Origin: an uncultured delta proteobacterium
GTDB taxonomy: Bacteria; Desulfobacterota; Binatia; UBA9968
Reading direction: 5' to 3'
Assembly (NCBI GenBank): GCA_963727625.1
Contig: CAVSHR010000006.1
Span: forward strand, 224,001-288,000
Length of the DNA: 64,000 bases
Shown in pieces: positions 6,913-14,267 of the stretch. The position numbers and the translations under genes were made by a program. The notes under the pieces are model-generated. The model was not told the origin of the DNA. It saw nothing but the letters and a program-made list of their open reading frames with translations, and did no database searches. Within the stretch, counting starts at the first letter, position 1, and the number at the start of each line of letters is the position of its first letter.

Positions 6913-7948
6913 TCGAACTACAACCGCACCCGATCCGCACAATCAATCGTCCGCTACGGGCCCCAGCCGCCGCCTAGACGGGCGTCTGCTCGCCACATCG
7001 TTCATGGCACTGTTTCTTCTGCAGCCGCTGTGCACCTTCGCCCAGGCGCCGGCCCGCGTGGGGATTTTAGTTCGGGAACTGGGCCGTGCTCAGTTCCAGG
7101 CGATCAAGGGCCTGACGGAGGAACTCAAACGGCTGGGCTATATAAACCGGGAAAATCTCGTTTTGGAAACTCGTAACGTCAAGGGCAGCCGGGCCGCGTT
7201 GCAACCCGCGGCCGCCGAGTTAATCGGCCAAAAGGTCGATCTGATTTTCACCACGGGGACCAGCGCCACCCGCGCGGCCGTGACCGCGACCCGGGAGATT
7301 CCAGTTGTGTTTGTTCACCCAGGCGACCCGGTTGCTTCCGGCTTGTTCAAAAGCGCCGAACTGCGGTCGGCAAACTTGACGGGCGTCGCGGCTTACGCCG
7401 GTGAAACCACCGAAAAGAGATTGGCGCTTTTCAATGAAATCTTTCCTGGGCTCCGAAAGGTCGTGGTCTTCTTTGATGGTAACAATGCCTCTTCGCGCGA
7501 TAAGTACAAGATGGTCGAAAACTTAGCAAAAAAATCTCATCTCGAAGCGGCCGCCTTTGCGGTTAAATCCGCCGACGAGTTGCGTACCACCATCGCTAAC
7601 TTGCACCCTGGAAACGGAATGGGCGTGTTTCAAGTGGCCGATGAGTTGGTTGAGAGCGAAGCGGAGTTTCTTTTTCAAAACGCTCGGGTGAAGAAAATCG
7701 CTACGATGTTCAACGAAGAATCGTGGGCGATTAACGGAGCGCTTGCCGCTTATGGGCCCAATTACTTTGAAATGGGTCGTCAAGCGGGCGGCCTCGCCGC
7801 GAAGATTATCAAAGGGAAGCGCCCGTCCTCCTTGCCGATCGAGCACGCAACCCAATTCGATCTGACGCTCAATTATCGCACCAGTCGATTTATCGGCGTG
7901 CCGCTTCCCAGGAAGCTGATTAAAAAAGCAAACAAAGTCATTCGCTAG
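6887..7948 (+). CDS. ABC-type substrate-binding protein (ABC_sub_bind-like); true start may be ATG 7004
   Basis: GDPVASGL...NLTGV, YGPNYFEMGRQAG, ends ANKVIR like the paralogue at 2197. Confidence 0.82.
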   Translation: MKVWKSLFSRTTTAPDPHNQSSATGPSRRLDGRLLATSFMALFLLQPLCTFAQAPARVGILVRELGRAQFQAIKGLTEELKRLGYINRENLVLETRNVKGSRAALQPAAAELIGQKVDLIFTTGTSATRAAVTATREIPVVFVHPGDPVASGLFKSAELRSANLTGVAAYAGETTEKRLALFNEIFPGLRKVVVFFDGNNASSRDKYKMVENLAKKSHLEAAAFAVKSADELRTTIANLHPGNGMGVFQVADELVESEAEFLFQNARVKKIATMFNEESWAINGALAAYGPNYFEMGRQAGGLAAKIIKGKRPSSLPIEHATQFDLTLNYRTSRFIGVPLPRKLIKKANKVIR

Positions 7949-10619: not shown

Positions 10620-11963
10620 ATGAGCCAAACTATTCTCATCGTCGACGACGAACCGCTCAATCTCGATCTCTTGGAACAGGAGCTGTCCGATCTCGGTTAT
10701 CCAGTCGATAAGGCAGACGGCGGCCGCGCGGCTTTGGCGCAACTGGCCGCGAAACCCGCCGATCTCGTTCTACTCGACTACCAGATGCCCGGCTTGAACG
10801 GCATCGAGGTATTAGGCGAGATTAAGAAAAGAGAGCCTGGCCTGCCGGTCATCATCATCACGGCCTACGGCACCATCGAACGCGCCGTCGAAGCGATTAA
10901 AGCCGGCGCGGACGATTTCATCACCAAGCCCTTTGACCCAGAGCATCTTGCGGTCGTCGTCAACAAAGCCCTGGAAAAAGCCCGGCTTCGCTCCGAAGTG
11001 GAATTGCTCACGCGCGAGCTCGCCGGCCGTTATTATCTGGTTGCGGGAAATAGCATCGCGATGGCGGCGGCGCTGGCCGACGCGAAGAAAGCGGCGCGCA
11101 GCACGACTACTGTGTTACTGCTTGGCGAGAGCGGCACCGGCAAAGAGATTTTCGCCCGCTCGATTCACGAATGGAGCGATCGAGCGGCCCGGCCTTTCGT
11201 CGCGATCAACTGCGCCGGACTTTCCAAGGAGTTACTCGAAAGCGAGCTGTTCGGCCACGAACGCGGCGCCTTCACCGGCGCGCACCAGGCGAAGAAAGGC
11301 AAGATGGAAACGGCCGACGGCGGCACGGTCTTTCTCGATGAGGTTGGCGATATCGCGCCCGAGCTGCAAACCAAGCTGCTGCGCTTTCTCCAAGAGCGCG
11401 AATTCGAGCGGGTTGGCGGCATCCAGCCCATCCGCGTCGATATCAAAATCATCGCCGCGACCAACAAGAATCTCGAGGAAACGGTGCAACGCGGTTCGTT
11501 CCGCGAAGACTTGTACCACCGGCTGAACGTCATCGCGATCGCACTGCCGCCGTTGCGCGATCGAAAAGATGACATCCCCGCCTTGGCGGACTATTTTTTG
11601 CGCCGCTTTGCATCGGAGACGAAAAAACCCTTCACCGGCTTGAGTGAAGACGCCTTGGCTCGGTTGTGCGCCTACGCTTGGCCCGGCAATGTGCGGGAAT
11701 TGGCCAACGTCATTGAGCGCGGCGTTGTCTTGGGCGACGGCCCTCGATTTGCCGCTGATCATTTGCCGGCGCGGATGATCGGCACCGCAGCCGCATCGCC
11801 ACCGGAGGCAAGACAATTTCACGACGCTGTGAATAGCCACCGCCGCGCGTTGATCGTCGACGCCCTCGCGCGCGCCCAGGGCAACCGCGCGGCGGCGGCA
11901 AAAACCCTCGGCCTGCACCGTACCCACCTGCTCAAGCTGATGAAGGCGCTCGGGATCACCTGA
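10620..11963 (+). CDS. Sigma54-dependent response regulator (NtrC/AtoC family)
   Basis: REC domain, GESGTGKE, ESELFGHERGAFTGA, FLDEVG, WPGNVREL, C-terminal Fis-type HTH. Confidence 0.95.
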   Translation: MSQTILIVDDEPLNLDLLEQELSDLGYPVDKADGGRAALAQLAAKPADLVLLDYQMPGLNGIEVLGEIKKREPGLPVIIITAYGTIERAVEAIKAGADDFITKPFDPEHLAVVVNKALEKARLRSEVELLTRELAGRYYLVAGNSIAMAAALADAKKAARSTTTVLLLGESGTGKEIFARSIHEWSDRAARPFVAINCAGLSKELLESELFGHERGAFTGAHQAKKGKMETADGGTVFLDEVGDIAPELQTKLLRFLQEREFERVGGIQPIRVDIKIIAATNKNLEETVQRGSFREDLYHRLNVIAIALPPLRDRKDDIPALADYFLRRFASETKKPFTGLSEDALARLCAYAWPGNVRELANVIERGVVLGDGPRFAADHLPARMIGTAAASPPEARQFHDAVNSHRRALIVDALARAQGNRAAAAKTLGLHRTHLLKLMKALGIT

Positions 11964-12488
11964 TCGCTAAAGCGGATTGGCCAACTGTTCTAGCGCGCTG
12001 CGACCCCACGGCTCTGCCGATTCCCTCCGTCAATCACCCAAGTTATAGCCTTTGGTTGGCGCTTTCGCCGTTAAAATGTTTCACCCTTAAGTCCGATGAA
12101 TCGAGTTCAGCCGCTCAATGACCTATCGGCGATAGTCGGCCGATTGGGTGGGAAAGGAAATTACTTTTGGTCTCGGCGCTCCCCCGCCAGAAAAATCAGC
12201 CGCGCCCGCTAGGTCTAAACCCGGCACCGCAGCGAATTTCGATCTGGCATGGCAAGGATTGAGCCGCGATCGGCGCAGCCTGCGCGATGGCGCGCCGATC
12301 AAAAAACCCCTCGTTAACGCCTATCGAAGCGTGATTTTCTCCCCGCACAGCGGATCTCCCCGAATAAAACAATCTATTGATACCGCGTCGCCTCAATTTG
12401 CCGTTGTTACTTCTCATAACGCCCCTAATCGGTCTCGCCAGCGGTAGACGATTTTCGAAAGAAAAATTTCTAAAATGATATTTTTTTC

Positions 12489-12517
12489 TTGACATACAAC
12501 TCCTTGTGCCTTAATGT
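12489..12517 (+). promoter_or_regulatory. Sigma70-type promoter with AT-rich UP-like region
   Basis: TTGACA (12489-12494), 17-nt spacer, TAATGT (12512-12517); A/T tracts at about 12451-12488. Confidence 0.7.
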
Positions 12518-12633
12518 TCGTATCACCTACAAAATATGGGAGGGTTTTTAGTAACTGTCCGTCTTCGCCTGAGTTATGTTTTTACACCTGTCAACTGAAA
12601 AGCCCACCCTTGGAATCCTAAAAGGAGGTGCTT

Positions 12634-12684
12634 ATGGCTGCTAAGAAAAAAGCCAAGAAGAAAGCCAAAAAGAAAAAGAAGTAA
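12634..12684 (+). CDS. 16-aa Lys/Ala-rich micropeptide MAAKKKAKKKAKKKKK
   Basis: Near-perfect Shine-Dalgarno AAAGGAGGTG at 12621-12630, ATG 12634, TAA 12682-12684; own promoter and terminator; mixed AAA/AAG codons. Confidence 0.7.
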   Translation: MAAKKKAKKKAKKKKK

Positions 12685-12767
12685 GCATGGAGTTGTGAGG
12701 TTGTGGTAGTGGTGGTTTGAACCCTCCTTACTCTCAGGCGACAAGGTAACCGTTCTGGTTGCCTAAT

Positions 12768-12811
12768 ACACAGAGCCCTCCGACATTACACTCGGGGGGC
12801 CTTGTGTTTTT
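12768..12811 (+). terminator. Intrinsic terminator
   Basis: ACACAGAGCCCTCCGA-loop-TCGGGGGGCCTTGTGT followed by a T run. Confidence 0.7.
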
Positions 12812-12969
12812 AGCCTCGCGTCATTCGAGTTAATCTCAAAATCGCATCTGCAGCATTACGGTGTTCGATAGGCTGGCGTAACTTTCATTAGGAACTTTTT
12901 AAAGTCCTAACACGTTAGCCAAATTGGGAGGGTTGCGTAGCCCTATCCGGTTGGCTACTGTTAAGTCTC

Positions 12970-13533
12970 ATGACGATCCGATTCCTTTACCGCCTCCGGT
13001 ATGTGATTGTGCTTACTGCGAGTCTGTTGACGCTTGATGTTGCGCCGCTGGGGAGTCAGTCGAGAGTCGATTACAAAGCGGTACCGATTCTGCAGCCGAT
13101 GAAGGACCGGTCCCCCACGCCGGATTTTAGTTTGACCACGCCTGAGGAAAAAAAAATTTCACTCAAGGATTTCCGCGGTAAAGTTGTTTTGCTGAATTTC
13201 TGGGCGAGCTGGTGCGTGCCCTGTCGCGAAGAAATGCCGGCAATGGAAAAACTCTATCAGGAGTATAAAGGAAGCAATTTTGTCGTCTTGGCCGTGGCCG
13301 TAAAGGACCGTAAACAAGACGCCGTCGATTTCGTCAAGGAGCTTAAAATTACTTATCCCATTGCGCTCGATCCCGACGCCCAAGTGGGCAATCTGTACGG
13401 CGCTTGGGGATTACCCGCGACCTATTTGATCGGCGCAAAAGGCGAAGGCTTGGCGCGCGGCTGGGGACCGGCGGAGTGGTACAGCCAGGCGGCGCGCAAA
13501 TTGATTAAAGATCTGGTCGACGGCAAACGATGA
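12970..13533 (+). CDS. TlpA/ResA-family thiol-disulfide oxidoreductase
   Basis: [17 protein letters not shown]; signal/anchor N-terminus; overlaps ccdA start. Confidence 0.9.
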
Positions 13534-14267
13534 CGGACATCAACGTTTTTGTCGCCTTTGCCGCGGGCGTTTTTTCGTTTCTCTCGCCCTGTGTTTTGCC
13601 GCTAATTCCCTCCTATCTTTCTTTCGTCTCGGGCGTGTCGCTGGATGAAATGCGCAACGATCAAGCCCGCTCTCGGGTGCGCTGGCGGGTGGTTTTAAAC
13701 TCCATCGCGTTCATCATTGGCTTTTCTCTGGTGTTCGTGTCTCTCGGCGCTTCGGCAAGTTTTCTCGGCGGGCTTTTTTTGGGCTACCGCAACGTCATTC
13801 GCATTTTCGGCGGCGTGTTCATACTGCTCGTCGGCCTCTACCTCGTCGGACTTTTCAAGATCGCGGCGCTCGATCGCTATTTGCAATTTAATTTGAAGGA
13901 TAAGCCGGCCGGCTATTTCGGTTCGATCCTGGTCGGCATAACCTTCGCCGTGGCCTGGACTCCCTGCGTCGGGCCGATCCTCGGAGCCACGCTGGCGCTC
14001 GCCAGTACGGCGGGTGAAGTGGGCCGCGGTACGCTGCTGTTGTCCAGCTACGCGGCAGGGTTGGCGCTGCCGTTTTTCTTGAGCGCCTTGGCAATTAATT
14101 CCTTCTTCCAATTTTCGCAGAAACTGCGCCGCTACGTTCAAGCCATCCACGTCGTCGGTGGTCTGCTCTTGATCATCGTCGGCATTCTTTTGATTACCGA
14201 CTACATGACGCTGCTCAATGCTTACGCCTTGCGCTTTACGCCGCAATGGTTGCTGCAACGGCTTTAA
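13530..14267 (+). CDS. ccdA: Cytochrome c biogenesis protein CcdA (DsbD-type membrane domain)
   Basis: SFLSPCVLPLIPSY and WTPCVGPILG motifs; multiple TM segments. Confidence 0.92.
   Translation: MTDINVFVAFAAGVFSFLSPCVLPLIPSYLSFVSGVSLDEMRNDQARSRVRWRVVLNSIAFIIGFSLVFVSLGASASFLGGLFLGYRNVIRIFGGVFILLVGLYLVGLFKIAALDRYLQFNLKDKPAGYFGSILVGITFAVAWTPCVGPILGATLALASTAGEVGRGTLLLSSYAAGLALPFFLSALAINSFFQFSQKLRRYVQAIHVVGGLLLIIVGILLITDYMTLLNAYALRFTPQWLLQRL

Follow-up and report, generated by a model that had tools for sequence, protein, structure and literature searches.

Is a 16-codon, lysine-rich open reading frame (ORF) lying in a 1-kb gap between two genes a gene in its own right and, if so, does it act through its peptide or through the RNA that carries it? 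This question is raised by the ORF encoding MAAKKKAKKKAKKKKK in a 64,000-nt stretch of contig CAVSHR010000006.1, which we call the window and to whose positions all coordinates refer. An earlier sequence-only reading of the window had interpreted the locus as encoding either an unannotated polycationic microprotein or a translated regulatory RNA, and this interpretation is supported by the behaviour of the ORF at 55 of 55 loci and by contigs from environmental RNA libraries. We conclude that the segment 12462–12813 is very probably a genuine transcription unit in which selection maintains a Lys-coding frame. The best reading of this unit, which we hold to be moderately probable, is a translated polycationic microprotein that would bind RNA, ribosomes or the nucleoid; we infer both its translation and its function.

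Conservation of the unit and of its reading frame

A 501-nt query (12400–12900) matched 27 of 41 relatives, and the alignments covered query positions 63–414 (approximately 12462–12813) and never the flanks. This block is the sole conserved portion of the 1-kb gap, the sequences on either side of it being unalignable. Within the order, the block was found in 81 of 123 genomes and in 25 of 27 genera. It was present in 75 of 89 genomes of family f1 besides the window's own, in all five genomes of family f2 and in none of the 28 of family f3; a KKKAKKK-coding stretch was likewise absent from each of five high-quality f3 genomes. The f1 genomes lacking a match were mostly of 60–92% completeness, and G598 (98%) and G619 (97%) also gave none. 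The public records that contain the unit are mostly titled “Candidatus Binatia bacterium”, some being labelled delta proteobacterium, Chloroflexota or Syntrophobacter.

The ORF was read at 55 loci from 55 of the 81 matching genomes, and these loci were picked by DNA similarity over the whole block and not by ORF pattern. The sequence-only reading had expected a genuine frame to keep its Shine-Dalgarno (SD) site, ATG and stop codon in relatives, with synonymous variation between AAA and AAG, and had counted loss of the frame as evidence against the peptide. Such variation is present, the SD site, ATG and in-frame stop codon are kept at 55 of 55 loci, and the frame is lost at none. The encoded peptides are 12–19 amino acids long (12 at two loci, 13 at nine, 14 at two, 15 at 16, 16 at 19, 17 at six and 19 at one) and comprise 19 distinct peptides from 46 distinct DNA sequences. 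Their residues after the initial Met are K (555), A (207), T (8), R (7), V (1) and P (1). All 555 AAN codons are AAA or AAG and never specify Asn, to which a third-position transversion would lead. Variable sites in the first 15 codons, counted over 21 loci of the genus, number one at codon position 1, none at position 2 and nine at position 3. Insertions and deletions consist of whole codons within the ORF and are of any length in the untranslated regions (UTRs). The stop codon is TAA at 45 loci and TAG at 10, and in this order the peptide ends in either K or R. A runs of at least 8 nt occur in 9 of 67 distinct ORFs versus about 29 in shuffles of the Lys codons, with 0 of 2,000 shuffles as low, a signal of A-run avoidance that is overstated because the sequences are related and is therefore indicative only.

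Several of the samples contain unpublished genomes. Alignment A1, of 26 rows, underlies the codon-position count, the RNAalifold model and the per-sequence folds. It includes G005 (loci L004 and L156), which is also among the 27 loci of the first ORF reading, the 55 loci and the 41 relatives searched. The order-wide survey includes G005, G582, G596 and G579, and the survey of spermidine-synthase-like domains described below includes G005, G582 and G596. Unpublished genomes are excluded from alignment A3 (53 sequences), which is the basis of the helix pair counts, the comparison of duplex stabilities and the permutation of helix strands, and no conclusion depends on them alone.

Two genomes were each found to contain two copies of a polylysine unit. 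Those of G003 (C26:27872–28218 and C25:188361–188707) have equal scores and may be an assembly duplicate, and those of G442 differ, one beginning MAA and the other MAT (C2:6060–6096 and C53:133574–133610).

Transcripts in environmental RNA libraries

A run search showed that 20 of the 24 runs listed contain part of the stretch, with 14 recorded as RNA; the 20 runs come from 10 studies. Contigs of four runs from four metatranscriptome studies were aligned to 12250–13000. Three of these contigs, of 221, 231 and 262 nt, cover 12561–12783, 12546–12778 and 12524–12769, respectively, with three to five differing letters and two gaps each (95–99% identity). They stem from close relatives and not necessarily from the organism of the window. 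No RNA contig of the four runs was found on 12250–12509 or on 12796–13000, the latter including the start of the next gene. The absence of a transcript would have spoken against the sequence-only reading; instead, four studies each yielded RNA contigs that lie on the unit and leave its flanks bare, and the unit is probably transcribed.

Many further contigs, in three runs, match the ORF only (12620–12690) and have unrelated flanks, some of them being deep (211 and 166 in one run). These may be polylysine ORF transcripts of other organisms.

Similar units in other phyla

For a wider scan, one genome per species was searched for an SD site followed by ATG GCN NCN (AAR)3 GCN AAR. This gave at least 122 matches at no fewer than 120 loci, and the range outside the order is a lower bound. 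The 120 loci listed all come from metagenome-assembled genomes. Among the matches listed, the ORF has 20 residues or fewer at 107 loci; the other matches listed have ORFs of 21 to 56 residues or are the starts of longer Lys/Ala-rich or other proteins. The first eight codons were set by the search pattern, and for that reason the N-terminus MA(A/T)KKKAK common to the matches is not evidence of common descent.

The largest group among the matches listed, MATKKKAKKKKH, comes from records labelled Acidobacteriota or Terriglobia. When acidobacterial loci were chosen by similarity of the leader, 41 of 41 among the matches listed held an ORF of 12–13 amino acids. Codons 9–12 of these ORFs, which lie outside the search pattern, vary at third positions, with one first-position change at a single locus. 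This acidobacterial type, which includes a variant ending in KKKKKH, has a conserved C-terminal His (CAC in 25 and CAT in three distinct ORFs among the matches listed). The acidobacterial units (L028–L147; for example L036:6028–6341 and L032:2673–2986) have their own conserved promoter, TTGACA followed by CAATAT, a structured leader, and their own conserved 3′ hairpin and terminator with covariation. Their UTRs show no sequence likeness to those of the window's order. Downstream on the same strand lies a gene for a protein of about 134 amino acids containing IPDKLYFRIGEVA, which we read as a MerR-type helix-turn-helix protein.

Single cases were found in records labelled Verrucomicrobiota, Brevinema, Patescibacteria, Gammaproteobacteria and others, each with a terminator-like hairpin directly 3′ of the ORF. 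In L035, L045 and L052 a U/C-rich sequence complementary to the Lys codons (for example UUUUUCUU) begins directly after the stop codon, so that a hairpin would enclose the end of the ORF. Of 101 genomes sampled from the class of the acidobacterial group, 4 contained the strict N-terminal pattern, as did 2 of 401 in a sample of the phylum to which the window's order belongs; both tallies miss variants such as MAKKAKK. The polylysine ORF type may have arisen more than once. As lineages with unrelated UTRs share only this ORF type, the peptide stands out as the shared element.

Organisation of the locus

The features of the unit and the genes that border the gap are given in Table 1. The A/T-rich tract, TTGACA-N17-TAATGT, the SD site, the ORF and the terminator named in the sequence-only reading can all be read directly, with the correction that the −10 element fits the consensus at only three of six bases. 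Its peptide with 11 Lys residues of 16 is present as described, whereas the ATG is displaced by one base from the position it had implied. MAAKKKAKKKAKKKKK is the sole ORF with at least 10 residues and at least 50% Lys in the 6.6-Mb genome. Two longer, overlapping ORFs of 99 amino acids on opposite strands of the gap (12148–12447, plus strand; 12196–12495, minus strand) gave no Pfam match. The approximately 500 nt that separate the unit from the regulator gene (11964–12461) are unconserved in relatives.

Table 1. Features of the polylysine unit and of the genes bordering the 1-kb gap (positions in the window).
Feature	Position	Strand	Remarks
Sigma-54-type response regulator gene	10620–11963		Named after Pfam; upstream border of the gap
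A/T-rich stretch before the −35 element, UP-element-like	12462–12488	+	5′ edge of the conserved block
Putative promoter: −35 TTGACA (12489–12494), 17-nt spacer, −10 TAATGT (12512–12517)	12489–12517	+	Read from the sequence
Predicted transcript, about 290 nt	12524–12811	+	Start deduced from the −10 element; RNA-library contigs lie inside 12524–12783
Box A, GGGAGGGUU, SD-like, in the 5′ leader	12538–12546	+	Nearly invariant; proposed partner of box A′
P2a, CGCCUGAG, 5′ strand of the long-range helix closing the ORF domain	12566–12573	+	Covariation
C-rich box, GCCCACCC	12601–12608	+	Conserved; may mask the SD site or pair with the GU-rich tract
SD site, AAAGGAGGUG (AAAGGAGGTG in DNA)	12621–12630	+	GGAGG core ending 5 nt before AUG
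ORF, MAAKKKAKKKAKKKKK, 16 codons and stop	12634–12684 (TAA 12682–12684)	+	11 of 16 residues Lys
GU-rich tract, GGAGUUGUGAGGUUGUGGUAGUGGUGGUUUG	12690–12719	+	Variable length; composition kept, sequence not
Box A′, AACCCUCCUUA, anti-SD-like, in the 3′ UTR	12720–12730	+	Conserved
P2b, CUCAGGCG, 3′ strand of the long-range helix	12733–12740	+	Covariation
3′ hairpin, GGUAACC-GUUCU-GGUUGCC	12745–12763	+	Covariation; loop nearly invariant
Intrinsic terminator, 9-bp G+C-rich stem (extendable by ACAC/GUGU), then U run	12775–12811 (stem 12775–12800)	+	Terminator called; 3′ edge of the conserved block
Thioredoxin-like gene	12970–13533		Pfam AhpC/TSA-Redoxin; downstream border of the gap

The −35 element is identical at all 26 loci that cover the 12489–12494 region, ATTTTTTTCTTGACATAC is likewise unchanged in those 26, and TAAAATGATATTTTTTTC in the A/T-rich stretch is nearly identical across the 26 aligned loci. 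The −10 element of relatives is TATAAT or TATACT. A consensus promoter scan of 11500–13500 listed one promoter-like site, at 11569, versus 1.0 expected; the site at 12489–12517 was unlisted because of its divergent −10 element, and its reading as a promoter therefore rests on conservation. With transcription starting at about 12524, the leader would be about 110 nt long. In relatives (e.g., L012, L016 and L018) the −10 element is often followed by a G+C-rich stretch (CGCGCCAG, CGGCGCAG), the copy in the window being less G+C-rich. Such a stretch recalls the discriminator of stringently controlled ribosomal RNA (rRNA) promoters, and the rRNA promoter region of the same genome resembles the promoter of the unit in style and not in sequence. 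We also considered a regulon sharing this promoter. A search of the genome for the promoter words with up to three mismatches returned 52 sites, none of which, besides the unit, had fewer than two mismatches or looked related, and this idea was rejected.

The AAGGAGG of the SD site is unchanged in 53 of 53 sequences, and the site is complementary to the 3′ end of the 16S rRNA of its own genome, GGATCACCTCCTTTCT. The ORF reads ATG GCT GCT AAG AAA AAA GCC AAG AAG AAA GCC AAA AAG AAA AAG AAG TAA. The 3′ UTR behind it measures about 90 nt, the stop codon of the ORF lying 90 nt upstream of the terminator stem.

Structure of the RNA

Covariation supports three helices of the RNA: the 3′ hairpin, the terminator and a helix, P2, that joins the leader to the 3′ UTR. 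In alignment A3, the 3′ hairpin has six of seven pairs changed on both sides with 97.8% of alignment cells paired and its GUUCU loop conserved, and the terminator stem has five of nine pairs changed on both sides with 95.2% of cells paired. For P2 (12566–12573 with 12733–12740), 98.8% of cells are paired and two of eight pairs are changed on both sides (CG to UA in three sequences and AU to GC in one).

The anti-SD-like box A′ has CCUCCUU in common with the 16S rRNA tail. Its core, CCCUCCUUA, is complementary to the 5′ GGGAGGG of box A and can also form 7 bp with the real SD site; the A:A′ duplex is the stabler of the two in 53 of 53 sequences (medians −17.9 versus −11.5 kcal/mol). In A3, 94.5% of A:A′ cells are paired and no double change was counted. 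In the most divergent genus (L181), GGGAGGGC pairs with GCCCUCCC, a change on both sides that represents a single event and is missing from the A3 count because the stretch is misaligned by one base. A:A′ and P2 cross, and would thus form a pseudoknot or alternative states.

RNAalifold pairs the C-rich box weakly with the SD site, and thermodynamic folds often pair the GU-rich tract with A′. Single-sequence folds, which were made with ViennaRNA and cannot model a pseudoknot of A:A′ and P2, differ between relatives, P2 appearing at high probability in only about half of them. Conservation along the RNA is lowest in the region immediately after the ORF stop codon. Two candidate elements were rejected. 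A helix between the C-rich box and the GU-rich tract is no stronger for cognate pairs than for permuted ones (−14.3 versus −14.6 kcal/mol, with 1,773 of 2,000 permutations at or below the observed value). Mimicry of 16S rRNA helix 45 by ACAAGGTAACCGT, which at 12741–12753 agrees with the start of this helix in the same genome at 12 of 13 bases (E 1.4 with 1.5 kb searched), we judge to be chance; the words are not kept in f2.

At two more distant loci, L031:5300–5680 (minus strand) and L058:4160–4590, the polylysine ORF has 30 and 29 codons, respectively, beginning MAAKKKAKKGKKSKAKKKAPAKKK, and the promoter is clearly related to that of the window (TTTTCCAAAATGGTATTTCTTGGTTGACA). Here GCCUG...GAGGGG and CCCUC...CAGGC have their respective segments adjacent, and form one nested leader-to-3′UTR helix in the minimum-energy fold. 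In these models, the recurring theme is an ORF domain closed by leader-to-3′UTR pairing that involves a CCCUC box.

A search of Rfam returned no match at E values up to 10 on 11900–13100 and, at gathering scores, none at the small ORF in 16 related loci. L032 has two Acido-Lenti-1 matches on opposite strands, 7271–7316 (plus) and 7454–7501 (minus), with 50.3 and 47.5 bits (gathering score 37), about 4.5 kb away from its polylysine ORF.

Such structure raises the question of whether the approximately 290-nt RNA is itself the functional product, as a dual-function or translated regulatory RNA in which translation of the ORF only gates or times activity. The CCCUCCUUA and GGGAGGG elements, the loop GUUCU and the ORF's purine triplets could then bind target mRNAs at their SD regions, or an RNA-binding protein or 30S subunits might be titrated by them. 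The UTR elements are as conserved as the ORF, the GUUCU loop is nearly invariant while its stem covaries, the anti-SD-like box has CCUCCUU in common with the 3′ end of 16S rRNA, some synonymous sites are frozen and the terminator with its U tail is of the kind found in many small RNAs (sRNAs); moreover, dual-function RNAs such as SgrS/SgrT, RNAIII/delta-haemolysin and SR1/SR1P are already known. However, amino-acid identity is selected, with the AAN codons all specifying Lys and substitutions leading only to A, T, R, V or P; lineages with unrelated UTRs have only the ORF type in common; and A′ and box A are predicted to pair with each other, which leaves little free seed. We regard this explanation as rather improbable.

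A cis-acting role of the nascent chain is still less probable. Polylysine within the ribosomal tunnel would slow release at the stop codon, so that the paused ribosome remodels or protects the RNA and the freed peptide has no role. This would account for selection for Lys and against long A runs and would suit peptides of 12–19 residues, which are shorter than the exit tunnel; the conserved acidobacterial C-terminal His also recalls arrest peptides, whose last residues matter. Yet the transcript holds no regulated downstream gene, the stretch directly behind the stop codon is the least conserved in the RNA, the peptide length varies and the last residue in this order may be K or R.

Gene neighbourhood

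Across the genus, the unit is followed on one strand by the thioredoxin-like gene and then by ccdA (together 12970–14267), as we read the second gene, and the upstream neighbour varies. The same-strand order is kept for the tlpA-like gene at 21 loci and for ccdA at 27, the latter including f2. The spacer of 160 nt from the terminator to the following ATG is unconserved, and no RNA contig crosses it, so we read the synteny as inherited gene order and not as an operon. There is no downstream cistron in the unit: the terminator is conserved and RNA cover ends by 12795.

This arrangement bears on whether the ORF is a leader peptide that senses charged tRNA-Lys or ribosome speed, with 12775–12811 acting as an attenuator of the tlpA-type and ccdA genes. 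The conserved gene order just described and an ORF rich in a single amino acid, as in classical leader peptides, are in keeping with such a scheme. Besides the unconserved spacer and the end of RNA cover in all four libraries, the downstream genes (the AhpC/TSA-Redoxin protein and ccdA) are unrelated to lysine, neither RNAalifold nor the per-sequence folds contain a conserved antiterminator alternative, the ORF ends 90 nt before the terminator stem, and the analogue in Acidobacteriota precedes a different gene, that of the putative MerR-type protein. We consider attenuation very unlikely. Finally, an untranslated chance ORF within a conserved non-coding RNA or promoter region would agree with the inability of purine tracts to hold stop codons, with a peptide below the 20-residue minimum of gene callers and databases and with the absence of six longer variants from the protein collection, but it is scarcely credible given an SD site, ATG and in-frame stop at all 55 loci, whole-codon indels and variation at third positions only.

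Proposed function of the peptide

We therefore return to the translated microprotein. According to this proposal, 12462–12813 would be a monocistronic gene whose strong, conserved promoter yields a structured RNA of about 290 nt ended by the intrinsic terminator, and the near-perfect SD site would direct translation of the 16-residue peptide. Selection would act on composition and not on exact sequence, as the peptides of relatives consist almost only of Lys with Ala spacers. Once free, the peptide would be a small diffusible polycation acting on nucleic-acid polyanions, most likely rRNA and ribosomes or other RNA and possibly the nucleoid. The UTR pairings (P2, and A′ with box A or the SD site) may stabilise the mRNA, protect its ends and tune the rate of translation, and free 30S subunits or the peptide are candidates for what the duplex of SD and anti-SD look-alikes would sense. 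The target of the peptide and the regulatory role of these boxes, like the transcription start and translation itself, are deduced in this scheme.

Function by charge fits the observations, since the Lys/Ala composition is kept, changes in length and spacing are tolerated, and Asn, acidic and hydrophobic residues are excluded. This charge-type selection, together with an ORF type that is all that unrelated RNAs have in common, favours a freely acting oligocation, and we lean towards the free peptide as the functional product. That it is specifically bound to the ribosome is doubtful.

Several observations weigh against this proposal. The synonymous sites in AAG AAA GCC AAA AAG AAA are invariant across both families, which indicates selection at the RNA level too and may reflect avoidance of A runs or an RNA function. 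The elaborate conserved UTRs exceed the needs of a simple mRNA and fit a function of the RNA. Openness of the frame proves little because a tract made only of purines lacks stop codons in every frame; the case for coding rests on the codon-phase pattern. The RNA-library contigs are silent on strand, ends and level. The varying length and Ala spacing argue against a snug, specific ribosomal pocket. The spread of the unit is patchy, as shown by its absence from f3 and its rarity in the phylum sample, so it is not a universal housekeeping part. Lastly, no link to polyamine synthesis emerged, spermidine-synthase-like domains being found in f1, f2 and f3 alike. Of the 86 genomes that are at least 90% complete, 85 contain such a domain, in the carrier families as well as in non-carrier f3, and replacement of polyamines by the peptide was rejected as an explanation.

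A wider synthesis, which we offer only tentatively and as one joint reading, is that several phyla carry an undescribed class of genes for encoded Lys/Ala oligolysines of 11–19 residues, expressed at high level from dedicated, structured monocistronic RNAs. In the lineage of the window, the mRNA would regulate itself: either the peptide or free 30S subunits would read its box A (GGGAGGG)/A′ (CCCUCCUUA) duplex, which would couple the supply of peptide to the ribosome or RNA load. The peptide would serve as a counter-ion bound to ribosomes or RNA, in the manner of an encoded polyamine.

Within an uncultured lineage that is found worldwide in soil and sediment, two families have the unit almost universally. 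Genes of 12–19 codons are invisible to gene callers and family databases, and the present case illustrates that one so small can be demonstrated from sequence alone by the pattern of codon-phase substitutions across 55 genomes. If the peptide binds ribosomes or the nucleoid, it would be a new component of the core cell biology of these groups; should the activity lie in the RNA, the unit would define a new family of structured RNAs whose mimic of the SD/anti-SD pairing is unusual. If the oligolysine gene class is true, its members would be among the shortest conserved protein-coding genes known. A 16-mer that can be synthesised and an RNA of 290 nt provide concrete experimental material.

Relation to known systems

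No description of such peptides was found in the literature as represented by search listings and the beginnings of abstracts, supplementary lists of small ORFs being out of view, and as far as this search extends the unit is undescribed. Family-model scans covered ten polylysine ORFs of 20–37 amino acids from other lineages, the 16-residue peptide lying below the tools' 20-residue minimum, and gave no match in NCBIfam and none of relevance in Pfam at E values up to 10; neither models of small basic ribosomal proteins nor those of H1-like K/A proteins were matched. Six variants of 20–37 amino acids were absent from the protein collection. The ESM Atlas holds only nameless clusters of similar proteins of 22–37 amino acids, which indicates that gene callers have met longer cousins and left them unnamed.

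The ribosomal proteins bS22, bL37 and bTHX, of about 24–33 amino acids, have conserved mixed sequences and probably fill rRNA pockets. Tiny and basic, bS22 and bL37 (mycobacteria, Cutibacterium and Borrelia) and bTHX (Thermus) came to light late, through structural work (PMC10618245; PMC10085706; 10.1101/2023.03.31.535098). The peptide of the unit resembles them in being tiny, very basic, lineage-restricted and long missed by annotation, but differs in that it is a length-variable, homopolymer-like series of K and A. H1-like proteins (chlamydial Hc1/Hc2 and AlgP-type AKKA repeats) share its K/A repeat chemistry, and the nearest Atlas cluster with a Pfam family carries HC2 (score 0.84), which is a lead only. 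Longer proteins starting MA(A/T)KKKAKK are also among the matches listed in the wider scan (e.g., L033, L050 and L118). H1-like proteins, however, have 50–250 amino acids or more, whereas the peptides here have 12–19 and are encoded on their own structured RNA, and no homology can be claimed between low-complexity sequences.

The leaders hisL, pheL and thrL likewise combine a short ORF dominated by one amino acid with a terminator hairpin. They differ from the unit, which has no conserved antiterminator, no amino-acid biosynthesis operon downstream, a stop codon far from the terminator and no visible read-through. Transfer-messenger RNA (tmRNA) is similar in being an RNA of about 300–360 nt with pairing 5′ and 3′ regions and a short internal ORF, yet its tag ORF lacks a start codon, in contrast to the polylysine ORF with its own SD site and AUG. 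ARAGORN finds no tmRNA or tRNA-like domain in the window, and a canonical tmRNA is present elsewhere (contig C12, tag ADNFEYALAA), so the unit was not taken for a tmRNA.

The dual-function small RNAs SgrS/SgrT, RNAIII/hld and SR1/SR1P, which also encode a peptide, share with the unit a stand-alone structured transcript of about 200–500 nt with an intrinsic terminator and a tiny ORF; they have a promoter of their own, which in the unit is putative. Base pairing has been demonstrated for these RNAs, whereas the boxes here are predicted, and in the present case it is the ORF and not the RNA that unrelated lineages have in common. By analogy, the unit would work like a microprotein gene embedded in an sRNA-like transcript.

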